Made by a program: the position numbers and the translations under genes. The notes beneath the pieces are model-generated. The model saw only the letters and a list, made by a program, of their open reading frames with translations, was not told the DNA's origin and ran no database searches. From positions 22,360 through 86,359 of the forward strand of contig CAKZQG010000044.1 of assembly GCA_937139605.1 (NCBI GenBank): a stretch of 64,000 nt of DNA, given 5' to 3'. Source of the stretch: an uncultured bacterium (GTDB lineage: Bacteria; DRYD01). This document shows positions 5,735-23,068 of this stretch, piece by piece (position 1 is the first letter of the stretch; each line of letters opens with the position of its first letter).

Positions 5735-6805
5735 TTATTTAATACCTAACCAATCGGCTACTTTGGATGTGATTTTTTCACCTACCATAGATCCTCCAGC
5801 GGCTCCAGCTATAGCGATTGCTGCTCCAGCTACAGCACCTATAGTAGTACCAATACCTGGAACCACAGAACCTGCTAATGCACCTGCAGCTGCTCCTGCT
5901 GCAATACCTCCTATTACACCGCCTGTTGTTTCAATAGCTGCTCTTTTTACTGATTTACCTTCATCAATTTTTTCTTTAAAATCAAGTCCAGCTCCAATAG
6001 TAATGGCAATAGGACCAGCTTTCTTGGCTATAGTAGATGCTACTTTACCTATTCCTTTAGCAGAAGCTTTTGAAATACCTTTTTCAGCTACTTCTTTAGA
6101 TACACTTTTTACAGCATCCTTAGCTTTAGAAGATATAACTCTTGGAGCTCTTTTTAGACTTTTAGCAGAATCTATTATTTTATCATCTAATTTGGATAGA
6201 CTTTTTACAGCATCTTTGGCTTTAGAAGATATAACTCTTGGAGCTCTTTTTAGACTTTTAGCAGAATCTATTATTTTATCATCTAATTTAGATATATCTT
6301 TTTTTGCTTCTTCAATAAATTTTTTTGCTTCAGATTTAATAACCTTAGGAGCTTTATTTTTTAATTCTTTAGCTTTAGATAATATTTTATCATCTATATC
6401 AGATAAGGTATCCTTAATTTTACTTTTAGCAAATTTAAAAGCTCCTTTTGACCCCTTTTCTTCAACATGCTTAGCAATTTTTTCTAATTTTTCTCCTTTT
6501 TTTTCAATAGCTTTTTCTATAGCACTTTCTTTTGCTTCTGAGGTTAGATAACTTCCATATTCATTGCCATTATTGTCATTTTTTTCATTTTCTTTTTTAT
6601 TTATATCTAAGGCTTTCTCAAAATTATTCTTTAATTTTTCTTGAATATTAATTTTTTCAGTATTAGATATTTTTAAGTTATTTTGAGTAGTACTTTCTGT
6701 TTTTTTGACATTATTTGAATTATTACTGCTTGATTTATTGACATATGTTTTATCTTGAGGAGAGATTGGATTATTATTTGTAGAATTATTTCTTATTGTG
6801 TTCAT
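5735..6805 (-). CDS. repeat-containing secreted/membrane protein with a C-terminal glycine-zipper hydrophobic tail
   Basis: 356 aa. It has an N/S/T-rich N-terminus and about four 32-aa tandem repeats (KLDDKIIDSAKSLKRAPRVISSKAKDAVKSLS). The C-terminus is GGVIGGIAAGAAAGALAGSVVPGIGTTIGAVAGAAIAIAGAAGG. The antisense ORF 5763..6551 is an artefact of this Gly/Ala-rich coding. Confidence 0.5.
   Translation of the reverse strand: MNTIRNNSTNNNPISPQDKTYVNKSSSNNSNNVKKTESTTQNNLKISNTEKINIQEKLKNNFEKALDINKKENEKNDNNGNEYGSYLTSEAKESAIEKAIEKKGEKLEKIAKHVEEKGSKGAFKFAKSKIKDTLSDIDDKILSKAKELKNKAPKVIKSEAKKFIEEAKKDISKLDDKIIDSAKSLKRAPRVISSKAKDAVKSLSKLDDKIIDSAKSLKRAPRVISSKAKDAVKSVSKEVAEKGISKASAKGIGKVASTIAKKAGPIAITIGAGLDFKEKIDEGKSVKRAAIETTGGVIGGIAAGAAAGALAGSVVPGIGTTIGAVAGAAIAIAGAAGGSMVGEKITSKVADWLGIK
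6103..6296 (-). repeat. near-perfect 96-bp tandem repeat (2 full copies plus degenerate flanking copies) inside the 5735..6805 CDS
   Basis: acagcatccttagctttagaagatataactcttggagctctttttagacttttagcagaatctattattttatcatctaatttgga recurs 96 bp later with two substitutions. Confidence 0.8.
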
Positions 6806-6930: not shown

Positions 6931-8205
6931 TCATATTAAATCATATAATTTTAAAACCTTTTGATCAAGCTCTTTTTGAATATCATTTAATTCTTGTTTT
7001 GCTAATTCTTCTGTTATTTGATTAGAAAACTTTTTCTTTTGTATATCTACAGCTTTATTAAAGATTTCTTCAAATTCTTTAAGCTGTTTAGGCATTGGAA
7101 TAACAATGGGAAGCTGACGAATATCATTCATTTGTAAATTTACTGACGTATTGATGAAAGTTTTCAAGAAATTAAATAAAAGCCTTGAATTAAGCATAGA
7201 AACTAAATATTTATTTGTGGTTAATTGATGTTTAGAGTATAATGACATTGACGCCACATCATTAACTGTTTTTTCTTTTATCCTGCATTTTATAAACATG
7301 CTTTCTTCGTGAATCGGTGTAGACACATTATTCCAACAAAATCCCTCTCTAAAATATAATTGATATCCTTGCCATCTTGCTTTTGGATCTGTTTGTAAAG
7401 ACTTTACATTTTCTTTACTCCAATCTATATAATATACACTCGGAGCCCACCAACGATTACCTTCTTTATCCCCTTTATCATAAGGTACAAAAGTTTTCCC
7501 CCCTTCTATTCCATTTAGTTTTTCATCTTCTGTTAATTTATCAACATCTGCTATCTCATCTTTACTTACTATCCTGTAAATCCAACCTTGTCCAAATATA
7601 TCTCTACCATAATTTTCCTTTAAACTATCAAATAAAGTCCTTATTTCAATTTCTTTTAAATTTTTCAAATAATCAATTACATCTTGCTTAGTTTTTAAGA
7701 AAGAGAGTTCTTTGGGATTTTTATTTTTAATGAATTCTGCTAATTTTTCAGGACGCTCTTTTTTTACTTTTTCAGCCCATTTAGTTCCTTCTAATACTCC
7801 AATATATTTCCCATTATTTCCTGTTGCTAAACCTTGTCCGCCTTCTGTTATTAAACCTAATAAAGTAATATCCCCAGGTTTTAAAGAATTTCTATATTGT
7901 TCTAAATCCTTTTTATACTTTAAAATATTTTTGCTTGTAGATATTTTATCCCACCACTTTTCTATTAATTCTTTTACTTTTTTACCATATTTATTATAAA
8001 TTTTTAGATTAAAATCAGTGGGTATAAAAAAGACATTATTAACCACATTTTTATAAACTTCATCTTTTACTGAATATACTTTTTTATCTTGTAATCCATT
8101 TTTAGCATCTATAAAAGTAATGTAATAATCTGTAGCTTGAGTTTTCTGAATAATTGCTATACAAGTATCAACCATAGCAGCAGAAAATGGATTAGCAGTA
8201 TCCAC
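6931..8205 (-). CDS. C-terminal 424-aa portion of the same methyltransferase (post-motif-V catalytic remainder plus putative target-recognition region)
   Basis: The listed start is GTG with no RBS. Its frame stays open upstream for 86 nt and overlaps the end of ORF 8292..10520 by about 25 nt. The sequence FISSKTFWTIQTKKNLREHIL...LIQLVDTANPFSAAMVDTCIAI continues the MTase fold. Confidence 0.6.
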   Translation of the reverse strand: MDTANPFSAAMVDTCIAIIQKTQATDYYITFIDAKNGLQDKKVYSVKDEVYKNVVNNVFFIPTDFNLKIYNKYGKKVKELIEKWWDKISTSKNILKYKKDLEQYRNSLKPGDITLLGLITEGGQGLATGNNGKYIGVLEGTKWAEKVKKERPEKLAEFIKNKNPKELSFLKTKQDVIDYLKNLKEIEIRTLFDSLKENYGRDIFGQGWIYRIVSKDEIADVDKLTEDEKLNGIEGGKTFVPYDKGDKEGNRWWAPSVYYIDWSKENVKSLQTDPKARWQGYQLYFREGFCWNNVSTPIHEESMFIKCRIKEKTVNDVASMSLYSKHQLTTNKYLVSMLNSRLLFNFLKTFINTSVNLQMNDIRQLPIVIPMPKQLKEFEEIFNKAVDIQKKKFSNQITEELAKQELNDIQKELDQKVLKLYDLI

Positions 8206-8291
8206 TAATTGGATTAGTCTATATTTAAGTATATGTTCTCTTAAATTTTTTTTGGTTTGGATAGTCCAGAAGGTTTTTGAGGATATAAAAG

Positions 8292-10520
8292 TTAAAATCC
8301 ACCTTCTCTTAAAATTTCAAGTCCTTTAAAATAAAAATGATTGTATAAATCATCAGCAAAATTAAAATTCTTTTCTAAAATTTTTTTATACTTTTCTTTT
8401 ACTCCTTTAGTAGATACATAGGGAGGGTTACCTATAATTATATCAAATCCACTTTTTGATTTAAAAACTTCAGAAAAATATACTTTAAAATCAAAATCAT
8501 TATGTCCTAGTGTAATTTTATAGATTATATTATCAATTTCGATTTTTAAATTTTGTTTTTTTAAGGGTTCTGTTTCATTAAAATATTCGGTTTTTAGTTT
8601 TTCAAGGAGGGCAAAGTAAGCATTTTCTAATAATTCACTTTGTAGCTTAAGTAGAGAGTCGCCACAAATGATTTTATAATCTAAATTCGGAAGTGGTTTT
8701 ATATTTTGAAAATCATTTTCATCTACAATTAAGGAAAGCCAAAATCTTAATTTACATATTTCAACAGCCCCTGGATCAATATCAACTCCATAAAGTGAAT
8801 TCTCTATTACATACCTCTTTAAATCATAAGTACTTAATTTTTTATCAAGATATACCGATAGAATCTGTTTTAGTTTTAGTATTTCGTGAAGCATTCCAAT
8901 AGGAAAAGCACCAGAACCAACAGCAGGATCACAGATTTTTATCTCATCTAAAATTTCATAAATTAAATTAGCATTATTAATTATATCTTCAGGTAGTTTA
9001 TGATTATATCTTTCTGTTTTTTTAATTTCTCCTTTTTCAATTTTTTCTTTTTTTTCAGTTGCTATTTTTTCATGCTCTAAAAATAAATCTCCTAATCTTA
9101 CAAACTTTTCTATATCCTCTTTTTTTACCTTTATGTTTTTTAATTTTTTATTAAGTTCTGTTTCAATGTAGTTTATCAAACTTTCTTGACATATGTAATG
9201 AACGATTTCTCGGGGTGTATAATAAACTCCATATTCTTTATTAAATTTGTTTTCTTCTCCTTTTTTACCTGATTTTAAAATATTTACATATTCATTAAAA
9301 TTATCATCTCTTATAGCATTTAATTTTTCATAGATTTTACCAAGTAATTCAGGATCAAGTGCTACTTCTTTTTCAAGTGGTTCTTCCTCATTTACGGTAA
9401 AATTATATCTATCAAAAATATCAAGGATTCCATCTCCTATATCTCCTTCTTTGGTTTTATTTTTATTTGAAAAAAGTTCATTAGGTAAAAGTAAATCAAT
9501 ATTTATCCAATCAAAATTATTTATTGGATCAAAAAGTCCACCATTTAAAAATGGGATTTTACATTTAAAGTAATCGTAATAATGATCGTTTGATCCTCTG
9601 TCAGTTCTTAAAGCTTCGTAAAACAAAGGTTCAAGAATATCATTATAAAAGTTTTGGTAATCAACATATTCTCTATTAAACAATTTTCTTAAGAAATCTT
9701 TTGGTCCAGTTCCCCAAGGTTTCCCTTTCTCTACTCCAAACCATCCCTTCTTTTGAAGAAAATATAAGAATACAATTTGTCCAAGAATTTTCTTAGCAAA
9801 ATCAATTGTACTTATGCTTTTTTCCTTAAACTCATTTTTCAGTTTTTCATTAATATTTATAATTTTATCAAGTTCAAGTTTTATTTTTATAAATAGATCC
9901 CTATATTTTTCAAAGAATTCCTCTGTAACTATCTCAACATCAAATGCTTTTTCAAGATTAGAAAGATTAGGTTTAAAGTTATCATCTTCAAGTATAGGTA
10001 AGAATCTTGATTGTGCAGTATGACTTTTTTCATTAGGACCAACTAAGAAAGACCATCTTTTAGCAGGAGTAAAATCTTGAATAACTTTAACTTTATCAGA
10101 TATTTTAAATTTATATTCTTTTTTTACAAGAGAAAATCTCCAATCTTGTTCATTATCTGATATAAAAGCTACAAGAGCAGCATCTTTTTCACTTGTAGTA
10201 CCTAATTTCCCTTGAAGGTAATAAGCTATGAAGTTTCTTTGAGTATGTCTAGCTTTATAAAGTGAAACATCTTTTTTTAGTTTAACTATTAGAATATCAA
10301 TTATATTTTTTTCTTTATCTATATATCTACCTAATCTTTCCCAAGAGCTGATGAAATCAAGGAATCTTTCAGTTATCCCCTGTGTCCCTGTTCTTGGAGT
10401 AAGTTCTTTTTCTTTATCATAAGTTTTAAGAAGATTAGATATAAATTTATTAAAGTTATCTTTATTAAATGGGTTTTCAAAGGTTTCAATAATTAATTTT
10501 TTTGCCTGTTCTCTGTTCAT
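8292..10520 (-). CDS. N-terminal 742-aa portion of a large gamma-class N6-adenine DNA methyltransferase (Type IIG / BREX PglX / DISARM DrmMI-like); the reading frame ends inside the catalytic domain
   Basis: Motif X YGVYYTPREIV, motif I ICDPAVGSGAFPIG and motif IV IIGNPPYVSTKG occur in gamma-class order. A roughly 440-aa N-terminal domain precedes them. The ORF stops right after the motif-V-like FYFKGLEILREGGF. Confidence 0.7.
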   Translation of the reverse strand: MNREQAKKLIIETFENPFNKDNFNKFISNLLKTYDKEKELTPRTGTQGITERFLDFISSWERLGRYIDKEKNIIDILIVKLKKDVSLYKARHTQRNFIAYYLQGKLGTTSEKDAALVAFISDNEQDWRFSLVKKEYKFKISDKVKVIQDFTPAKRWSFLVGPNEKSHTAQSRFLPILEDDNFKPNLSNLEKAFDVEIVTEEFFEKYRDLFIKIKLELDKIININEKLKNEFKEKSISTIDFAKKILGQIVFLYFLQKKGWFGVEKGKPWGTGPKDFLRKLFNREYVDYQNFYNDILEPLFYEALRTDRGSNDHYYDYFKCKIPFLNGGLFDPINNFDWINIDLLLPNELFSNKNKTKEGDIGDGILDIFDRYNFTVNEEEPLEKEVALDPELLGKIYEKLNAIRDDNFNEYVNILKSGKKGEENKFNKEYGVYYTPREIVHYICQESLINYIETELNKKLKNIKVKKEDIEKFVRLGDLFLEHEKIATEKKEKIEKGEIKKTERYNHKLPEDIINNANLIYEILDEIKICDPAVGSGAFPIGMLHEILKLKQILSVYLDKKLSTYDLKRYVIENSLYGVDIDPGAVEICKLRFWLSLIVDENDFQNIKPLPNLDYKIICGDSLLKLQSELLENAYFALLEKLKTEYFNETEPLKKQNLKIEIDNIIYKITLGHNDFDFKVYFSEVFKSKSGFDIIIGNPPYVSTKGVKEKYKKILEKNFNFADDLYNHFYFKGLEILREGGF

Positions 10521-10688
10521 AGCTTAGTACCTCACTTATCTTTTTGTTTATTTTAAAAACAATTTAGCCAATAGGTACTTTTTTACAATTTGTATATTTA
10601 CAATTTGTATAAGTATTTTTTAAGCAAGCTAAGTAAATATTTAGCTATTATTGATTTTTTTATTATTTTTTGATTAATTAATTTTTTT

Positions 10689-10780
10689 TGCGTCTTTATT
10701 GCGCCTTTATTGCGCCTTTTGCTTTATTGTGTCCCCTTTGTGTCCCCTTTATGTCTCCTTTGTCCCCTTTGTGTCCCTTT
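10689..10780. repeat. array of 9-11-bp GC-containing direct repeats with roughly 11-bp periodicity
   Basis: gcgtctttatt gcgcctttatt gcgccttttgctttatt gtgtcccctt tgtgtcccctt tatgtctcctt tgtcccctt tgtgtccctttt. These are islands of GCGCC / GTCCCC in an otherwise AT-rich region. The array spans the stop codon of ORF 10749..11066 and lies 170-270 bp upstream of the MTase start. Confidence 0.75.
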
Positions 10781-11066
10781 TAATTATTAAAGTATAATGA
10801 GTACCTTTTCCTGTTTCTCCGATTTGCTCAAGTATTCCTTTCTCAACCAAGTCAGATAGATCTCTTGAAGCGGTTTTTTTAGTTGTCTTATTTAGTTCTT
10901 GATATTCTTTATTAGTTATTTTTCCTTTTTCTTTTACATAAATTACTGATTTTATTTGACGTTCATTTAATCCCATTTTTCTCAAATTTTCCTTTTTATG
11001 GAAATAATTTATACAACTAATCATTTCTTGATATATATAATGATAAAATAACTTCTCTTTTTCCAT
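10749..11066 (-). CDS. small winged-helix DNA-binding protein (the true start is probably at the internal Met, giving about 75-90 aa)
   Basis: LNERQIKSVIYVKEKGKITNKEYQELNKTTKKTASRDLSDLVEKGILEQIGETGKGTHYTLI resembles the C-terminal wHTH of AlbA_2/HATPase_c_4-type regulators (ITN.EY......S..TA.RDL..LV..G.L...G.G..T.Y.L). The 5' 50 nt overlap the upstream helicase gene. The C-terminal KGTKGTKET tail is encoded by the repeat array. Confidence 0.45.
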   Translation of the reverse strand: MEKEKLFYHYIYQEMISCINYFHKKENLRKMGLNERQIKSVIYVKEKGKITNKEYQELNKTTKKTASRDLSDLVEKGILEQIGETGKGTHYTLIIKRDTKGTKET

Positions 11067-14000
11067 CTTTTGATGGATTTACATTTATAGAGTGATCTTT
11101 AACAAAAGAAGGATGAATTTCTTTTTGTAATATAGTTAAGACTTTTAAAGGGTTTTCAATTTCTTTGTTAAGCTTTTTAATTTCTTGATTAACTTTTTGG
11201 ATTGTCTTTTTCGGAATTGATCCTATTTCAAGGCTTTTAATAATTATATTTATATAATCTTCTTGTTCTTCTGTTAACTGCTTACTATTTTTTAGTACAG
11301 CTTTTAAAAGATTTTTAAGTTCTTTTGAGGAATCTTTCCCTTTTTTATTAAAATCTTCAGATAAAATTTCTTCTTCATGAATCGCTTGGAAAAATAATAA
11401 TTTATTTTTTTCAAGAAGTTCATAATATCTTTCTAAAGGTAACTTAGTTTTGGGTTCATTTTTTGAACATTCAAAAATTTTTGCTGTCGTTAAAAAATCA
11501 ATCTCTTTTGTTTCATTATCTGAAGATAAATAAAACTTCATTAATTTTCCTTTCCTAAAAAATGTTATAAGTGAATCAGGATATACTAAAGATTTAAGAT
11601 TTTTATCAAAATTTTTTGAAGCTCTTGCTTTTTTAGGTAATTTCTTTATCTTTTCAAATAAATCTGGATTTTCGTCTCTTATTTTCTCAATAAATTTCAA
11701 ATATTTTAGTTCATTTTCTTCAAAAATTTCATCCTCAAGGAAAATTTCTTGAGATGTCAATTTATTAAATAACTCATGAGAAGAGATAGGTTCTCCTTCA
11801 GTTAAAATTTCAGCATCTCCACCAAGAAGACTTAAAAATGCTTCTACCTTTGAACGTGCTATTTTTAATAACTCTATCTCATTCTCTCCCTGTTCTGTTG
11901 GTAAGAAATTAAAAATATAAATTTTATCAAATTGAGTATCTATACGATTTACTCTTCCTACTCTTTGAATTAACTTTGTGGGATTCCAAGGTATATCATA
12001 GTTTATCACTATATTTGATCTATGTAGATTAACCCCTTCTGAAAGAACTTCTGTTGAAACAAGTATTCTATAATCATCTCTTTTATTTTTAGCTCTAGCA
12101 TCAAAATTATCTATAACTTTATTTCTATCCTGTTCTGATGAATTTCCATCAAAACGAAGAGATAATTCACCAAATTTTTCATTTATACTATTAACTAAAT
12201 ATTCTGCAGTTTCTCTCGATTCTGTAAATATTATGACTTTTTTGTCTTTTAAAATAGGATTATTTTCAAGATTATTAAGTAAAACTTCAAGTTTAGGATC
12301 CCTTTCTATTTGATTCCACATTTCTTGAATTTTTTTAAGAGTATTTAGATCTTTTTCTAGAGCTTCTTTAAAATCCTCTCTAAATTGATTAGTTGGATAT
12401 TCATCAGCTTTTCCTTCTTCTATTAAATTTTGTATTGCTTTATCATCATCACTTTCTAAGAATTCTATTATTTTACTTATATGTTTTTTACTTATAAAAA
12501 CTTTTTTATTTTCTTCATATATTTTTATAAACTTTTCATAAGAATCAATAAATCTTGTTATACTTTTTCTAAATGCATAAAAACTACTTTCAAGACGTTT
12601 AATAAGTAAAACTTTCATAAACCCTGCAAGATTTTTTTGCGCTTGTATTTCATTTTTTATGTTATTGTGATTTATTTCATCTTTAAGGTAAAGTAAAGGG
12701 ATGTAACGAGAATAAGTAAGTTCTTTAGTTAAAGTTTCAATAGTTTTATTAAAAATTTCATTCTCTGTTTGATTAAGCTGATAAAGTAAAGGCTTTGGAG
12801 CTTCTATTTTGGGAAATTTAATATTATTACTTTCTAAATCTTCTTTAAAATAAGTTTCTATATCTTTTCTAGTTCTTCTTACCATTACATATTTTAGAAC
12901 TTTATTTCTTATTTCTTTTGCTATTTCCCTTGTTTCTTTTATGTATTCATCATAGTTATTTGAGCGATCAAGATTTTTTAGCTTTGCCTGTAAAGATAAG
13001 AAAAAATTTTCTAAATTTGGAACCCCTGGTATTGTACTTTTTTTAGCATTTTGAAAAAGTTTAAGTTGCGCAAGAATATCTTTTGGAGAGTTATTATAAG
13101 GAGTAGCAGATACAAGAATAACTCTTCTACCTCTACAAATTTTAGAAAGTTTTTCATAACTTATGGTTAATTCATTCCTAAAACGATGAGCTTCATCAAT
13201 TACAATATTTTTATATTCTCTTTGATTAATAAGATCTTCAGCTTCCTCAAGTTTCCCAGTAGATACATATTCTGCAGAAATATTAAAATCAGAAAAAACG
13301 TTTTTCCAAGAGCCTGGATTATTTTTATTAATTAACGAGGGGGGAGCTATAACCATAGTTCTTCCATCAAGCTGAGATACAAGCATAGCACAAACATAAG
13401 TTTTTCCAAGACCTACAACATCTGAAATAAATACTCCCCCATATTCCTCAATTATCTTTTTAGCATTTAATACAGCTTGCTTCTGATATTTAAGCTCCTT
13501 GAAATTTTCAGGTAAATATTTATTATCTAGCTCATTTAGATAATTTAGCTCATCTTTAAAATACTCATACAAAAATTTTAAATATATCTCATAGGGTGTT
13601 ATATTTTCGTTAATATAAGTTTTTTCATTTATCGTATTTACAAAAGTTTCATTAAGTTCCACTGATTTTTGCCAAAGTTCCTCAAATTTAATTTTAGCAA
13701 ATTCGTAATCACTCCTATTTTTTAGTTCAACATTAAACTCAAGATTATTGTCTAAACCTGATTGAGTTAAATTACTAGATCCTGTAATAACTCTCCCTAT
13801 ATCCCTATCTCCTTCCTTAAACGTTATAATATACAATTTAGCATGTAATTTTTTGGAAGGATAAGCTCTTATTTCAAGCTTACCTGATTTTATCCATTCA
13901 ATAAATTTCTTAACTCCTTTCTCTACACTTTCACTATCTTCTGATTCTTCTAACTCTTCTATTATTTTTTCTTCTAAAAATTGCTTTACTTCATAATTAG

Positions 14001-14280
14001 AGGGATTAAAAAAAGTTGTATTTTCAGATTTTGATTTTGTTATTAACTCATAAATTTTCTCTGAAGCATCAATTCCTACAAGAATCCTTATTTTTTCTAT
14101 ATTTTCTAAAGCTTTGTATATATTATGAAATCCACTTAAATAAAAATATCCTACTATACAATCAAAAAATCTAGCATCGTTTAACAATATATTAAACCTA
14201 TCTTTTAACGTTTTACCTTGTTCATTAGTTATAAATGTTAAATCTAAGGAATTGAATTTTAAGTTTTCCATTTCTTTCAT
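11017..14280 (-). CDS. PLD-family (HKD) nuclease domain fused to an SNF2-family helicase
   Basis: 1087 aa. The HKD motif is KLHAKLYIITF...GSSNLTQSGL (about aa 150-190). The SNF2 N-lobe has GLGKT and the DEAH box VIDEAHRFRN. The helicase C-lobe has VSTEVLSEGVNLHRSNIVINYDIPWNPTKLIQRVGRVNRI. A roughly 270-aa C-terminal extension follows. Confidence 0.75.
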   Translation of the reverse strand: MKEMENLKFNSLDLTFITNEQGKTLKDRFNILLNDARFFDCIVGYFYLSGFHNIYKALENIEKIRILVGIDASEKIYELITKSKSENTTFFNPSNYEVKQFLEEKIIEELEESEDSESVEKGVKKFIEWIKSGKLEIRAYPSKKLHAKLYIITFKEGDRDIGRVITGSSNLTQSGLDNNLEFNVELKNRSDYEFAKIKFEELWQKSVELNETFVNTINEKTYINENITPYEIYLKFLYEYFKDELNYLNELDNKYLPENFKELKYQKQAVLNAKKIIEEYGGVFISDVVGLGKTYVCAMLVSQLDGRTMVIAPPSLINKNNPGSWKNVFSDFNISAEYVSTGKLEEAEDLINQREYKNIVIDEAHRFRNELTISYEKLSKICRGRRVILVSATPYNNSPKDILAQLKLFQNAKKSTIPGVPNLENFFLSLQAKLKNLDRSNNYDEYIKETREIAKEIRNKVLKYVMVRRTRKDIETYFKEDLESNNIKFPKIEAPKPLLYQLNQTENEIFNKTIETLTKELTYSRYIPLLYLKDEINHNNIKNEIQAQKNLAGFMKVLLIKRLESSFYAFRKSITRFIDSYEKFIKIYEENKKVFISKKHISKIIEFLESDDDKAIQNLIEEGKADEYPTNQFREDFKEALEKDLNTLKKIQEMWNQIERDPKLEVLLNNLENNPILKDKKVIIFTESRETAEYLVNSINEKFGELSLRFDGNSSEQDRNKVIDNFDARAKNKRDDYRILVSTEVLSEGVNLHRSNIVINYDIPWNPTKLIQRVGRVNRIDTQFDKIYIFNFLPTEQGENEIELLKIARSKVEAFLSLLGGDAEILTEGEPISSHELFNKLTSQEIFLEDEIFEENELKYLKFIEKIRDENPDLFEKIKKLPKKARASKNFDKNLKSLVYPDSLITFFRKGKLMKFYLSSDNETKEIDFLTTAKIFECSKNEPKTKLPLERYYELLEKNKLLFFQAIHEEEILSEDFNKKGKDSSKELKNLLKAVLKNSKQLTEEQEDYINIIIKSLEIGSIPKKTIQKVNQEIKKLNKEIENPLKVLTILQKEIHPSFVKDHSINVNPSKDGKREVILSLYISRND

Positions 14281-14311: not shown

Positions 14312-17300
14312 TTAATTAATTTCGTTTAGAATATATTTTTTAGTTAAGGTATTAGATTTAAGGAATTCTTGATAAGTATCTTGGAAAATAATATACCCTC
14401 CTTCATCTGCAGCTTTAGGACCTACTTCTATTACATAATCAGCATTCTTTATAACTTCTATATTATGTTCTACTATTACAATAGTTGCTCCCTTATTTAG
14501 CAATTGATAAATAACATTTAGAAATTTTTGGACATCTAAATAATGTAATCCAGTAGTAGGTTCATCTAAGAGATAAATAGATTTATTAACATTCCTTTTA
14601 GATAGTTCATAAGCTAATTTAATTCTTTGACTTTCTCCACCTGATAAAGACGGAGAAATCTGACCTAACTTGATATACCCTAATCCTATGTCATCTAAAA
14701 ATTTTAATTTCTCTTCAACATTTTTAAACCCTTTAAACACATTAATAGCTTCTTTTACAGTTAATTCCAAGACATCATAAATACTATATTTATTATCAAA
14801 TTTAACACTTAATGTTTCTAAATTATATCTCTTACCATCGCAAGATTCACATTTTATATATAAATCAGGTAAAAAATTCATATCTAATTTAATAAAACCT
14901 TCTCCTTTACATTTATCACATCTACCCTCAGGTAAATTATAACTAAATCTACTGGCATTAAACCCTAATCTCTTTGATTGAGGTAAATTAGCAAATATAG
15001 ATCTTATCTCATCAAATACTTTAGTATAAGTAGCAACTGTAGATCTGGGAGTTTTACCTATAGGTTTTTGATCTACATAACTTACTTTACTAATTTTTTG
15101 CTTATCAAACTCTATATCTCCGTAAATTTTTTCATCAAATACACTAATAACCTCTTGATTTAATTCGGAAGCTAATTTGTAATATAAAGCATCTAAAATA
15201 GAAGTTTTACCACTACCTGATACTCCTGTTATAACTGTTAATCTATTTAATGGAATCTTTATAGATATATTTTTTAAATTGTTTAACTTAACATTTTTTA
15301 AATATATATAATCTTCTTGATTGAATTTTTTAATATAGTCCTTTTCAATGTTTTTAACTTTTTCTTTATCAACTAAATATTTTAATATAGGGCTATTTAA
15401 AAATTTTTCATATAAATTTAAAATCTCTTTTTTAAGTAATTCCGGTAAATCTAATATTTTTAATATTTCTTCTAAATTTCCATTGTTGTTATACAAAGAA
15501 TTTAGAAAATCAAAATTAAAAGTATTAAATAGTTCAAAATATTTATTAAGAAAATCGGAAAATAAAAGGTACCCACCATTTTGCCCACCTTCATATCCTA
15601 ACTCTACTAAAAAATCAGCGTTCTTAATTACTTGTTTATCATGTTCTACAATTATAATTGTATTATTTAATTCTTTTAGTTTTAAGATGCTTTTAATAAC
15701 TTTATCTACATTATAAGGGTGTAATCCAATAGTTGGCTCATCTAAGACGTATATAATACCGGATAACTGAGCTCCTAATTGTGAAGCTATTTTAATTCTT
15801 TGTGCCTCTCCTGAAGATAAATTAGAAGCAGTCCTATATAAATCTAAATACCCTAAATCTAATTCAATTATAAAATTTAACCTTTTTACAACCTCATCTA
15901 GTAGATTTTGTACAATTTCTCTTTGTTTTTGAGTTAATTCTAAAGAATTCAGTATATTTTTTATTTGACTAATTGGCTTAGAGGCTAAATCTCCAATACT
16001 ATAATACTTTTCATCATTTGTTTTTAACTTAACACTTAAAGCTATTTTATTTAATCTATAACCATTACATTCTTTACATTTAACTTCGAAAACTAAATTA
16101 GATAAATCAAAATCATAATTGTAATACAATTCATTAACGAATTCTCTAATCCCTTCAAAATTAGAATCTCCATAAATAAGTTTCTCTATTTTTTCTTTAT
16201 CAATATTTTTTAGAGGTTTATTAATATCAATGTCGTTAGCATAGCAAAAGTTCCTAACTTTTTCCCACCAATAATTTAATTTATACCAAGAATATTGGTT
16301 TTTAGGAAAAATTTTAATAGCTCCTTCTTTTATTGATAAATTATAATCTATTATTTTATTTAGATTAAAATCAATAACATTTCCTAAGCCTTTACATTTT
16401 TCGCAAGCTCCTAAAGGGGTATTAAAAGAAAATAATCTCCAACTTATTTCAGGATAACTAAAACCACAATTATAACAACTAAAGCTCCCTGAATATAATA
16501 AATATTTATCATCTACAAAAATCTTAACCAATTTCTGCTTTTCTTTATCTATAGATAGTTTCAAAGTAGTATCCATCGCTAACGATATCGAATTTAATAA
16601 TCTACCTTTATTATTTTCATTTACTATAAGATTATCTACTATGACATCTATATTATGTTTTTCAAATTTATTTAATTCAATTTCATCGTCTATATCAAAT
16701 TTAATATCATTAACAATAACCTTAGTAAAACCCATTTTTTTAATTTTGTTTAAAGTGATTTTATGGTCTCCTTTTTTATATCTAATTACAGGAGCTAAGA
16801 TAGATATTTTTTTATCTTTGTAATTTAGAAGAATTTGTTCTAAAATTTCGCTTGGCTCTAATTTGGATATAACTATATTACAAAATGGGCAAAATGGAAT
16901 CCCAATAGAAGCATATATTAACCTTAAATAATCATAGATTTCAGTTATAGTCCCGACAGTAGAACGAGGATTTAGATTTTTAATCCTTTGATCAATTGAG
17001 ATAGTAGGTCTTAAACCTTCTATTTTATCTACATTAGGCTTTTCTAATTTAGTTAAAAATTGCTTTGCATAATTAGAAATAGCTTCTAAATATCTTCTTT
17101 GACCTTCAGAATATATAACTTCATAAGCTAAACTACTCTTACCACTACCAGAAACTCCACATATAACTGTTATTACATTATGCGGAATTTTTAAATTTAA
17201 TCCTTTTAAATTGTTTTGCTTTACATTTGTTATATCTATATAACTCTGAACTTCTGGATCTTCAAAAAATCTTTCTTTATAAAATGGAATATCACTTTTT

Positions 17301-17326
17301 ACAATAAAACTATTATCTCTACTCAA
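14312..17326 (-). CDS. uvrA: excinuclease ABC subunit A
   Basis: 1004 aa. The N-terminus NNLKGLNLKIPHNVITVICGVSGSGKSSLAYEVIYSEGQRRYLEAISNYAKQFL is the canonical UvrA N-terminus. It carries two ABC ATPase modules (second Walker A GVSGSGKTS) and CxxC zinc fingers. Confidence 0.85.
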   Translation of the reverse strand: MSRDNSFIVKSDIPFYKERFFEDPEVQSYIDITNVKQNNLKGLNLKIPHNVITVICGVSGSGKSSLAYEVIYSEGQRRYLEAISNYAKQFLTKLEKPNVDKIEGLRPTISIDQRIKNLNPRSTVGTITEIYDYLRLIYASIGIPFCPFCNIVISKLEPSEILEQILLNYKDKKISILAPVIRYKKGDHKITLNKIKKMGFTKVIVNDIKFDIDDEIELNKFEKHNIDVIVDNLIVNENNKGRLLNSISLAMDTTLKLSIDKEKQKLVKIFVDDKYLLYSGSFSCYNCGFSYPEISWRLFSFNTPLGACEKCKGLGNVIDFNLNKIIDYNLSIKEGAIKIFPKNQYSWYKLNYWWEKVRNFCYANDIDINKPLKNIDKEKIEKLIYGDSNFEGIREFVNELYYNYDFDLSNLVFEVKCKECNGYRLNKIALSVKLKTNDEKYYSIGDLASKPISQIKNILNSLELTQKQREIVQNLLDEVVKRLNFIIELDLGYLDLYRTASNLSSGEAQRIKIASQLGAQLSGIIYVLDEPTIGLHPYNVDKVIKSILKLKELNNTIIIVEHDKQVIKNADFLVELGYEGGQNGGYLLFSDFLNKYFELFNTFNFDFLNSLYNNNGNLEEILKILDLPELLKKEILNLYEKFLNSPILKYLVDKEKVKNIEKDYIKKFNQEDYIYLKNVKLNNLKNISIKIPLNRLTVITGVSGSGKTSILDALYYKLASELNQEVISVFDEKIYGDIEFDKQKISKVSYVDQKPIGKTPRSTVATYTKVFDEIRSIFANLPQSKRLGFNASRFSYNLPEGRCDKCKGEGFIKLDMNFLPDLYIKCESCDGKRYNLETLSVKFDNKYSIYDVLELTVKEAINVFKGFKNVEEKLKFLDDIGLGYIKLGQISPSLSGGESQRIKLAYELSKRNVNKSIYLLDEPTTGLHYLDVQKFLNVIYQLLNKGATIVIVEHNIEVIKNADYVIEVGPKAADEGGYIIFQDTYQEFLKSNTLTKKYILNEIN

Positions 17327-21151: not shown

Positions 21152-23068
21152 CTAAATACTCCTAACATTAGCTTGAAAACTTGATATATAATCATTAAAA
21201 TCATTCAATATTTTCTCTAATTCTATAATATTATTTTCCATAGTTTCAAGTAACTCCTGTTTTTCAGATTCATCTGTTATATCATTAAATAAACTTATAT
21301 TATTTCTAATATCTGCTAAAACAACTAAAATATTTTCGATTTTAGATAATAATCCAATAATTTCTCCTTCCTTAGGAAGATTTTCTAAATTCTTATAAAT
21401 AGATTCAAAATTAATAAATGAATTATTAATTAAATTGATAAAAGCATATAAAAACTTAGAATAATCTGTGTTATTTAAATAATTTTCTCTGAATTTATCA
21501 AATATTAATTTTAAATTAGATTTAGTTTCAATTGGAGGTTTTATTAATTTAGAATTACATTTAACACAATATTCATTATAATATTCATTTTCAAAACCAC
21601 ATTTAACACATATTATTTTTTTAACAACAAATAATTCCTCAACTTCCTTATAATCTTGTAGAATATTTAGCAATATATTCTTTATTTTATTTTCAAAATA
21701 CAACCATAAATCAACTAATAAATCTTTATTTTCATAATCACTTAGATAATTATTTACTATATTCAAAAACTCATTAAATAAATCAATATTATCAAGTATT
21801 ATTTTATCATAAGGAGTAAGTAAATTATGTTCATTTTTTTGTAAATCAGTAATAACATCATTAAAATAAATATAAAAATTGTAAATAGCTGAAATAGATA
21901 AATCTTCTGAATATACTCTATAAACTATATCATATAGATTTTCAAATACCCCAGCACCTTTTAACTCCTTAGAATCAAATCTAATATGAATCTCATTTTC
22001 TAATTTATTCATAGAATTTAAAATATCATAAAATAAATTAGCCCAATCAGAAGAAATCTCTACCTTATTAGGATAATTATTTACAATTTGTAAATATAAA
22101 CTATTAATAAAATCTTTAATTTTATTTATTTTATTTTTTATATTTTCATATGATTCATTTTTAAGAGCTTGCTTATTAAAAATTCTATTTATATAAACTT
22201 GATACCATTCAAAAGCTTTATCAAAAGAATTCCTTACTTTATACTCATATAAATTTTTAAAAGAATTAATAGAAACATAATTCTCATAAATCCAATAAGA
22301 ATAAAGAATAAATTCGAACCAGACATTAGCAAAAGGAATCCTTGTTAAAGCAATATCCTTTGAAACAATATAATACTCATAATCACTTGCCTTACTATCT
22401 ATTTCCTGAATATATTCATCTATTTCTTTTAATTGCATAATATAATCATTAGCTTTACTTAGAACACTTCTATCCTCTAATGAATCTACAACATCTTTTA
22501 TAAAAGAAATTATTTTTAAAATATTTTCTTGTAAATCTTGGCCCAATAAATCTCCCCTTATCTTTAAAAAAACCTCATAATAATCCTTTAATTCATTTAA
22601 TAATAACTTCATATAACTAGAATAATTTAAATCCATTTTATTAAAAAATGAATCTAAAACAACTAATTCCCAGGATTTTAATTCATTATTAGGAAACAAA
22701 GTAAAAACACTACTTAAATAATTTAAAAAATTAGATAAATTATTTAAAAATTCATTTAAAAAAATTAAAATATCTTCTTTAGATGAAAAATCAGAAATCC
22801 CTAAAACCTTTTCCTTATTTTGAAATATATATTCAAAAATTGATAAAACTTCTTCATTATTTATTTCTTTAAAAAAAATTATTCTAAACAAATCAATATG
22901 TTCCGAAATTTTATTAAAAAATGAATTAAAATTATTTCCAAATTTATCTAATACCTTTAAATAATCAGAATTATCAATGGTAATTAAAAGATAAAGATCA
23001 TTTAAATATATAATTGATTTATTTAAATAGAAGATAGATTCTTCCAGTATGTTTTTCAACATTACCAA
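21152..23068 (-). CDS. hypothetical protein with a C-terminal zinc-ribbon (CxxC...CxxC)
   Basis: 638 aa. It is N/Y/F-rich and low-complexity but has an intact long ORF. It contains VKCGFENEYYNEYCVKCNSKL. No recognisable catalytic motif. Confidence 0.3.
   Translation of the reverse strand: MVMLKNILEESIFYLNKSIIYLNDLYLLITIDNSDYLKVLDKFGNNFNSFFNKISEHIDLFRIIFFKEINNEEVLSIFEYIFQNKEKVLGISDFSSKEDILIFLNEFLNNLSNFLNYLSSVFTLFPNNELKSWELVVLDSFFNKMDLNYSSYMKLLLNELKDYYEVFLKIRGDLLGQDLQENILKIISFIKDVVDSLEDRSVLSKANDYIMQLKEIDEYIQEIDSKASDYEYYIVSKDIALTRIPFANVWFEFILYSYWIYENYVSINSFKNLYEYKVRNSFDKAFEWYQVYINRIFNKQALKNESYENIKNKINKIKDFINSLYLQIVNNYPNKVEISSDWANLFYDILNSMNKLENEIHIRFDSKELKGAGVFENLYDIVYRVYSEDLSISAIYNFYIYFNDVITDLQKNEHNLLTPYDKIILDNIDLFNEFLNIVNNYLSDYENKDLLVDLWLYFENKIKNILLNILQDYKEVEELFVVKKIICVKCGFENEYYNEYCVKCNSKLIKPPIETKSNLKLIFDKFRENYLNNTDYSKFLYAFINLINNSFINFESIYKNLENLPKEGEIIGLLSKIENILVVLADIRNNISLFNDITDESEKQELLETMENNIIELEKILNDFNDYISSFQANVRSI

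Follow-up and report, generated by a model that had tools for sequence, protein, structure and literature searches.

A probable degraded copy of a widespread two-gene restriction-modification-like operon, pairing a PLD-SNF2 protein with a large adenine methyltransferase, in an uncultured bacterium

The locus described here lies in a stretch of 64,000 nucleotides from an uncultured bacterium (GTDB lineage Bacteria; DRYD01), corresponding to positions 22,360 to 86,359 of the forward strand of contig CAKZQG010000044.1 (GenBank assembly GCA_937139605.1). The whole stretch is referred to as the window, and positions are counted from its first letter. The uvrA gene occupies 14312-17326 (NCBIfam UvrA, 993 bits) and downstream of it are found the minus-strand open reading frames (ORFs) of a module consisting of a gene for a fusion of a phospholipase D (PLD) nuclease with an SNF2 ATPase, a small ORF of 105 amino acids (aa), a tract of short repeats, and a large adenine methyltransferase (methylase) gene in two fragments (Table 1). 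An earlier note on this DNA had listed these four elements, and all of them lie where it had placed them. The region is probably a degraded copy of a widespread two-gene, ATP-dependent, restriction-modification (R-M)-like operon formed by the PLD-SNF2 gene and the methylase gene. A 1-bp deletion in the methylase and the truncation of an accessory gene of Schlafen type make it most likely that this copy is non-functional.

Table 1. Features of the module on the window (all positions refer to the window; a dot marks a feature without strand).
Feature	Coordinates	Strand	Evidence
PLD(HKD)-SNF2 gene, intact, 1,087 aa; predicted restriction/motor subunit	11017-14280	-	ORF calling, Pfam, 29-homologue alignment, dN/dS
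Single-HKD PLD nuclease domain (aa 52-203; H146, K148, GSSN 167-170)	13672-14127	-	Pfam PLDc_2
SNF2-type superfamily 2 (SF2) ATPase core (aa 261-785: GLGKT, DEAH, SATP, QRVGRVNR)	11926-13500	-	Pfam, invariant motifs
Conserved C-terminal region of PLD-SNF2 (aa 786-1087)	11020-11925	-	many invariant residues
105-aa ORF; 10749-10999 appears to be the 3' remnant (winged helix-turn-helix tail) of a 446-aa SLFN_AlbA_2/HATPase_c_4 gene	10749-11066	-	blastn against L007, L090, L091
Junction of 1.1-kb deletion at short direct repeat (microhomology)	10990-10999	.	overlap of two blastn segments, alignment
Tandem repeats of 11-bp period: AAAGGGGACAC ~4-5 times, then AATAAAGGCGC ~3 times	10684-10781	-	Tandem Repeats Finder (TRF)
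15-bp direct repeat, TATACAAATTGTAAA twice, 60-90 bp upstream of methylase start	10582-10611	-	TRF, 100% match
Methyltransferase pseudogene, 5' fragment, 742 aa: N-terminal alpha/beta domain, helical domain, gamma-class motifs up to NPPY	8292-10520	-	Pfam, PADLOC, AlphaFold
1-bp deletion (GGG to GG) shifting the methylase frame	8299-8300	-	alignment with L007
Methyltransferase pseudogene, 3' fragment, 453 codons, other frame: rest of catalytic domain and target-recognition region	6931-8292	-	weak Pfam TaqI_C, LPD14

The PLD-SNF2 protein is matched by several Pfam domains. PLDc_2 (E 5.8e-11) is followed by SNF2-rel_dom at aa 344-511 (E 2.9e-9) and Helicase_C at aa 666-780 (E 7e-24), with a DEAD match also falling within aa 261-511 and a weak, overlapping ResIII match at aa 261-395 (27.8 bits). 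When the window protein is aligned with 28 homologues from many phyla, the nuclease residues H146, K148, and GSSN and the ATPase motifs GLGKT (290-294), DEAH (362-365), SATP (391-394), and QRVGRVNR (772-779) are all invariant, and the earlier note was right to see a PLD nuclease and a full SNF2 ATPase in one chain. The remaining residues, aa 786-1087, have no Pfam match, yet many of them are invariant; the AlphaFold model of the C-terminal 288 aa is poor (predicted local distance difference test, pLDDT, 64; predicted template modelling score, pTM, 0.39) and falls below use for a fold search. The ratio of nonsynonymous to synonymous substitution (dN/dS) of the gene against sister strains is 0.21-0.30. 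Its best PADLOC match is the HKD+Snf2 model C3a139 (162 bits), and the NCBI name for partners of this type is “helicase-related protein”.

The methylase, of approximately 1,195 aa and Eco57I/PglX-like, belongs to the gamma class of N6-adenine methyltransferases, as had been proposed. Pfam Eco57I is matched at aa 574-741 of the 742-aa fragment with 95 bits (cut-off 25.3), MmeI_Mtase with 29.6 bits, and the PADLOC model REase_MTase_IIG (PDLC03596) with 864 bits over the whole 742-aa ORF and 898 bits for the intact orthologue. The 3' fragment was called as an ORF at 6931-8205 (424 aa), but its own frame extends upstream to 8292 (453 aa); it gives weak Pfam matches to TaqI_C, at 7105-7308, and to LPD14, and a match of 63 bits to the C-terminal part of the NCBIfam BREX_1 PglX model. 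The frameshift recorded in the earlier note is traced to the loss of one G at about 8299-8300, just past the NPPY motif, where the intact gene of a sister genome (L007) reads GGTGGGATTTTAAC (G-G-I-L-T) and the window reads GGTGGATTTTAAC. On this comparison, the break appears to be a real 1-bp deletion, and the 742-aa fragment is 96% identical to the intact proteins P0121 and P0122. Programmed frameshifting was considered and rejected, as a slippery heptamer is absent and the orthologues are either intact or broken elsewhere. The model of aa 1-470 (AlphaFold, pLDDT 81.6) consists of an alpha/beta domain, approximately aa 1-160, followed by a helical domain, and the dN/dS of this N-terminal part is 0.12-0.18.

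Upstream of the methylase start, the perfect 15-bp repeat TATACAAATTGTAAA is kept in the sister genome L007 as well; it is possibly a candidate operator for a regulator or part of a promoter. A scan for sigma-70 promoters and terminators gave counts that did not exceed the shuffled expectation in this AT-rich DNA.

The association of the two genes was evaluated on 80 metagenomic loci, which were obtained with a PLD-SNF2 profile and then searched with the methylase. A methylase homologue comes next on the same strand in every locus having at least 1.5 kb downstream of the PLD-SNF2 gene (58/58). The earlier note had named a lack of co-localisation in other genomes as a ground for refutation, and the count points strongly in the opposite direction. 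The gap between the two genes is at most 40 bp in 52 of 69 loci, and the divergences of the two proteins from the window copies are correlated (Spearman 0.69, n = 57 loci). A third conserved gene was sought among the 112 immediate flanking proteins, where no Pfam family exceeds five occurrences, and the families that do recur are resolvases and generic ATPases. The PLD-SNF2 protein and the large methylase are thus encoded by a strict two-gene operon without a third conserved partner.

Each protein has more than 7,900 relatives at E ≤1e-10, with identities above 60% across unrelated phyla, including Thermodesulfovibrio, Petrotoga, Aminicenantes, Bacteroidota, Desulfurella, Aquificae, and some archaea. 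The methylases of the family are about 1,000-1,270 aa long and consist of a family-specific N-terminal domain, a helical domain, a gamma-class N6-adenine catalytic domain of Eco57I/PglX type, and a variable C-terminal recognition region. High conservation extends to the C-terminal 300 aa of PLD-SNF2 and to the N-terminal 470 aa of the methylase, which is unusual for defence genes. This implies frequent horizontal transfer together with a strong structural constraint, the latter possibly exerted by a large interaction surface. A plasmid search returned only distant relatives (at most 37% identity), and the subfamily of the window is not evidently plasmid-borne.

The small ORF between the two core genes was described in the earlier note as a winged helix-turn-helix protein. 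The ORF exists and gives a weak HTH_DeoR match (21.6 bits), besides a weak one to SoFic_C, but it is the remnant of an optional gene and not a component of the system. Indeed, window positions 10749-10999 correspond to the last ~83 codons of the 446-aa SLFN_AlbA_2/HATPase_c_4 gene, which is intact in L007 and L091. In blastn comparison, the segment 13292-14390 of L007 (~1.1 kb) is missing from the window and the two flanking segments overlap at 10990-10999. For this reason, the 105-aa ORF appears to be what a deletion has left of the 3' end of a Schlafen-type accessory gene, read from a chance ATG. The deletion is flanked by short direct repeats of the form A(A/T)A(A/C)AGAGGA and has removed the first ~363 codons; the ORF overlaps the end of the PLD-SNF2 gene by 50 nucleotides, and its ATG lies inside that end.

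Genes of this kind are optional passengers of the two-gene module, as their presence and position vary. In the window lineage they are located between the core genes; in Desulfurella acetivorans (L008), an AlbA_2 gene is 3' of the methylase, and in a distant relative on a Parabacteroides plasmid, it is 5' of the SNF2 gene. One extra gene is found between the core genes in 15 loci, namely, NYN three times, AlbA_2/HATPase_c_4, HepT/HEPN, and DUF3800 twice each, YhcG/DUF1016, Bro-N, and ATPase_2 once each, and three more inserts without a family assignment. Examples among loci L010-L089 are L043 11889-12374, L011 12431-12787, L017 4391-5437, and L035 13209-13940. The NYN RNase, the HepT/HEPN RNase, and the YhcG PD-(D/E)xK nuclease are among these inserts, and such abortive-infection or toxin-like passengers resemble those found within Type I R-M operons.

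Related genomes (sister lineage G+C ~25%, genome size ~1.86-1.88 Mb) carry the same uvrA-linked site in various states. In L007, a JGI contig with the uvrA/ppdK context, the operon is intact, with a PLD-SNF2 protein of 1,087 aa (97% identical to that of the window), an SLFN_AlbA_2 + HATPase_c_4 protein of 446 aa, and a methylase of 1,192 aa. In L090, both core genes are intact, the Schlafen-type gene is shortened, and a Type II methylase and a 236-aa gene have been inserted. In L091, the methylase carries a nonsense codon (GAA to TAA at codon 498); in L092/L093, it is split (416+745) and the Schlafen-type gene is nearly gone; in L094, PLD-SNF2 is fragmented into 330+35+130 aa; in L004 (JAPYWL010000008.1), the whole module is deleted, and what is left of it, the first 33 PLD-SNF2 codons, is fused to the DNA immediately beyond the methylase stop. 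The window adds a state in which the Schlafen-type gene is deleted and the methylase is frameshifted. The insertion seen in L090 (6263-7833) recurs in L092 (5263-6833) as an opposite-strand Type II-like pair, made of a 287-aa N6_N4_Mtase and the unannotated 236-aa gene, between the Schlafen-type remnant and the large methylase. Because this pair was inserted there in two sister strains, the intergenic space of the operon is considered an insertion hot spot for other defence genes.

It is quite improbable that the copy in the window is functional. In that case, the small ORF would be a real regulator, and the frameshift would have arisen in the assembly or would be a programmed or phase-variable switch. 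The change does sit in a short G run, the remnant keeps a winged helix-turn-helix, and the exact 742-aa product is reproducible, being recorded by NCBI, JGI, Logan, and ENA on two contigs. However, a GGG to GG tract is too short for classical phase variation, unrelated lesions account for the inactivation in the sister strains (a nonsense codon, a split at another place, fragmentation, or loss of the whole module), and the remnant is without its own start region, its ATG being borrowed from inside the upstream gene.

The synonymous divergence (dS) of PLD-SNF2 and of the N-terminal part of the methylase is 0.05-0.075, which matches that of uvrA (~0.07). The module is therefore a long resident of this lineage rather than a recent insertion, and its lesions are recent. 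This speaks against the inserted islet flanked by unusual non-coding repeats that the earlier note had envisaged. G+C is ~25% across the whole window, and the 96-bp repeat next to the module lies inside an ORF (see below). The recognition-region end of the methylase (6931-8292) behaves differently, with a dS of 0.17-0.21 against L007, L090, and L091, about three times that of the rest of the operon and of uvrA (about 0.06), and the 3' fragment is 83-90% identical to the sister strains. This pattern suggests recombinational allelic exchange of specificity modules between strains.

Beyond the domain content, the strict pairing, the co-divergence, the missing third partner, the variable accessory genes, and the decay state of this copy, which are matters of observation, the intact system most likely works by analogy with Type III, Type ISP, and MANTIS enzymes. 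The methylase would recognise a short, probably asymmetric, site through its C-terminal recognition region and would methylate an adenine in host DNA. On unmodified incoming DNA, it would recruit or activate a PLD-SNF2 dimer, in which two HKD halves would form a single active site. Dimerisation would be needed because each chain has one HKD motif, as in Nuc, BfiI, SauUSI, and MANTIS MtsD. The SNF2 ATPase would then provide translocation or long-range communication, followed by DNA cleavage. Loss of the methylase would not be lethal, because restriction would depend on it for targeting.

Type III and Type ISP enzymes (EcoP15I; LlaGI and LlaBIII) likewise combine a methylase-recognition block with an SF2 ATPase-nuclease block which uses ATP for long-range action. 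The Type ISP block order, i.e., nuclease-motor and then methylase-target recognition domain, is kept here on two chains, whereas a Type ISP enzyme is one polypeptide. The likeness lies in the logic and not in the folds. The nuclease of these enzymes is of PD-(D/E)xK type, located in Type III at the C-terminus of Res, and the Type III Mod subunit is of the beta class, whereas here the nuclease is an N-terminal PLD/HKD domain, the ATPase is of SNF2 type, and the methylase is of the gamma-class Eco57I/PglX-like type, so that the module does not fall within Type III. The MANTIS/Gao_RL system (BREX-related Type 2; MtsA-D) shares with the present module an N-terminal HKD/PLD nuclease fused to an SF2 ATPase and a separate N6-adenine methylase. 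The PLD-SF2 effector of MANTIS, MtsD, has been described as a dimer whose chains share a single active site and which follows the recognition domain of the methylase; when this domain is swapped, modification and restriction both change in specificity (bioRxiv 10.64898/2026.09.23.753747).

Several points weigh against this interpretation. The protein PLD-SNF2 could be autonomous if its C-terminal 300 aa acted as a DNA reader. PLD-SNF2 is intact and under purifying selection where the methylase is broken, which could reflect an independent function. Assembly of the two methylase fragments is conceivable as well. Furthermore, no experiment on any member of the family was found in the literature; methylation, restriction, and methylase-dependent cleavage are deduced. 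In this lineage, three independent methylase lesions stand beside an intact PLD-SNF2 gene, a situation which fits a nuclease powerless without its methylase and also fits an independent role of PLD-SNF2.

It is conceivable, although unlikely, that two independent defences travel together, namely, a single-chain Type IIG enzyme with its own N-terminal nuclease and an autonomous PLD-SNF2 protein similar to SauUSI or Hna. The survival of PLD-SNF2 beside broken methylases would agree with this, and PADLOC files the methylase as REase_MTase_IIG with the scores given above. The alpha/beta domain of the methylase, moreover, contains the conserved residues E15, E61, D75, D113, D126, and K133 and gives faint matches to restriction-endonuclease folds. 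However, the spacing typical of Eco57I leads to E61-x13-D75-I-L77, with an invariant leucine at the lysine position and no (D/E)xK motif, and neither Foldseek nor Pfam nor a PDB profile search finds a nuclease in the N-terminal part. An intrinsic nuclease in this domain is thus unsupported, if still conceivable. The adjacency in 58/58 loci, the near-zero spacing, and the co-divergence argue for one machine, and REBASE has re-filed PglX-type “Type IIG” entries as plain methyltransferases (PMC12707154).

As regards the single enzymes with which the two proteins might be equated, a methylase with a fused recognition domain, as in Type IIG, is present, its chain being broken by the frameshift in the window. 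Unlike the Type IIG/IIL and BREX PglX enzymes (Eco57I, MmeI, PglX/BrxX), it has no recognisable PD-(D/E)xK motif N-terminally, and its gene is always paired with PLD-SNF2 and without partners of the bacteriophage exclusion (BREX) systems. On the other side, SauUSI (Type IV) and PbeA (Dnd-linked) also unite a PLD nuclease, at the N-terminus, and a subsequent SF2 ATPase in a single chain. SauUSI differs from PLD-SNF2 in having an SRA reader of its own and in targeting modified DNA with no methylase involved, and the partners of PbeA are a CxC ABC ATPase and a DndE-like protein.

The earlier note had favoured a minimal form of the restriction-modification-associated defence island system (DISARM), with DrmD and DrmC fused, DrmMI kept, and DrmA and DrmB lost from a class 1 system. 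This is highly improbable. Class 1 DISARM (DrmA, DrmB, DrmC, DrmD, and DrmMI) does have an SNF2 helicase, a PLD nuclease, and a large adenine methylase, and with this common domain vocabulary the PADLOC DrmD models match the helicase half at 126 bits, the DrmMI models match the methylase at 87-96 bits, and DrmC_I is faint on the PLD domain. However, the NCBIfam scores are far below the cut-offs (DrmD 145.8 bits against 610, DrmD_b 60 against 950, and DrmC_I 20.9 against 133), and the best PADLOC matches are C3a139 and the Type IIG model. PLD and SNF2 are in one protein and the DrmA/DrmB (DUF1998) pair is missing. The absence of DrmA and DrmB, which the earlier note had itself pointed out, holds for the window, where no DUF1998 protein is found, and for the gene tables of L007, L008, L090, and L091; DUF1998 is also not among the 25 commonest families of the 112 flanking proteins of related loci. 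Moreover, the pair is a stable, self-contained operon across phyla and not a sporadic reduction. What stands of that proposal is its second option, a distinct restriction module composed of a helicase and a methylase.

A stripped-down BREX-related or MANTIS (Gao_RL/Hma) system, with a DUF499 ATPase encoded elsewhere, is very improbable as well. The effector logic is the same, joining an HKD nuclease, an SF2/SNF2 ATPase, and an N6-adenine methylase, and the top NCBIfam match of the effector is phospholipD_antiphage (156 bits). Furthermore, Schlafen-HATPase-wHTH (winged helix-turn-helix) genes are widely associated with BREX and BREX-related loci as accessories (PMC12839542). The phospholipD_antiphage score is, however, to be set against a cut-off of 1100, and sequence similarity to MANTIS is confined to the C-terminal half of the helicase. 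The HmaA matches are limited to aa 531-802, and the NCBIfam PglX models reach 24-63 bits on the methylase against cut-offs of 400-900. MANTIS depends on MtsA, which is a DUF499 AAA+ ATPase, and on the small DUF3780/3870 protein MtsB, neither of which is linked here; DUF499, DUF3780, BrxC, and PglZ were not found in the window or among the flanking genes of related loci. The methylase also belongs to another family, being a large Eco57I/COG1002-type enzyme with a fused recognition domain and not of the COG1743 type of BREX-related systems (PMC7641849).

Fusions of HKD with SWI2/SNF2 in R-M contexts were noted computationally by Iyer, Aravind and colleagues (PMC3417536), and the domains and adjacency counts reported here correspond to that description, with HKD fused to a SWI2/SNF2 ATPase and a DNA methylase adjoining. 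In the literature searched, no paper was found that names, characterises, or tests the PLD-SNF2/large-methylase two-gene system, and no solved structure is close to either protein. In Prevotella intermedia 17F, a helicase of the SNF2/RAD54 family is located upstream of the methylase genes that REBASE assigns to Type IIG, in the Pin17FIII system (m6A GGYGAB), and possibly participates in it (PMC5608340); that locus, a possible counterpart of the present one, has two methylase genes. It is tentatively proposed, at somewhat less than even chances, that the pair represents a distinct, as yet unnamed, minimal two-component class of ATP-dependent R-M systems, comparable to a Type ISP enzyme divided between two chains and equipped with a PLD nuclease and SNF2 motor. 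The pair appears in thousands of genomes of various bacterial phyla and some archaea, and RNases of abortive-infection type are often encoded between the two genes.

The repeat array noted at first sight of this locus is real, and it is a small, strain-variable tandem repeat with nothing pointing to a functional part of the system. It straddles the last codons of the Schlafen-type gene and the intergenic region and measures 100-112 bp across the window, L007, L090, and L091, with a copy number that differs by strain. With up to one mismatch, AAAGGGGACAC is matched six times in the window, compared with 0.32 expected by chance from shuffles, and four of the six matches fall within the tract. 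A reading of the array as CRISPR-like or as a regulatory RNA was rejected, given that the tract is only ~100 bp long, has two unit types and no spacers, overlaps in part the coding sequence of the remnant, and differs among strains in its number of copies.

A minus-strand ORF of 356 aa at 5735-6805 has no Pfam or NCBIfam match and contains at 6095-6303 a 96-bp (32-aa) tandem repeat of 2.2 copies (93% match). Its orthologue has a length of 381 aa in L090, as against 354-356 aa for L007 and L091, and these differences may reflect copy-number variation of the repeat in a possible surface or structural protein. In Desulfurella acetivorans, the region 5121-7720 of L008 carries a HinfI-type R-M pair followed by a ThsB-like TIR protein and an SLATT/DUF4231 protein. 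This cluster lies ~2.3-4.9 kb upstream of the module, with IMS polymerase and Peptidase_S24 genes in between, and looks like a typical defence island.

The family to which the module belongs is abundant and tightly conserved, and the copy in the window represents ordinary genomic decay, with no functional significance of its own. The sister genomes nevertheless form a natural series of decay states, which suggests that loss of the methylase first is tolerated. Tools that consider only the methylase call a “Type IIG R-M” system, and in this way the pair is systematically mis-filed or half-filed; a “DISARM-like” label would add to the confusion of annotation. The operon is the smallest architecture that joins a PglX/Eco57I-like methylase with a PLD-SF2 effector, and the coupling problem posed by BREX, DISARM, and MANTIS could thus become testable with two proteins. 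If the proposed reading is true, the pair would be the simplest available model of the step in which unmodified sites pass from a PglX/MtsC-like methylase to a PLD-helicase effector.

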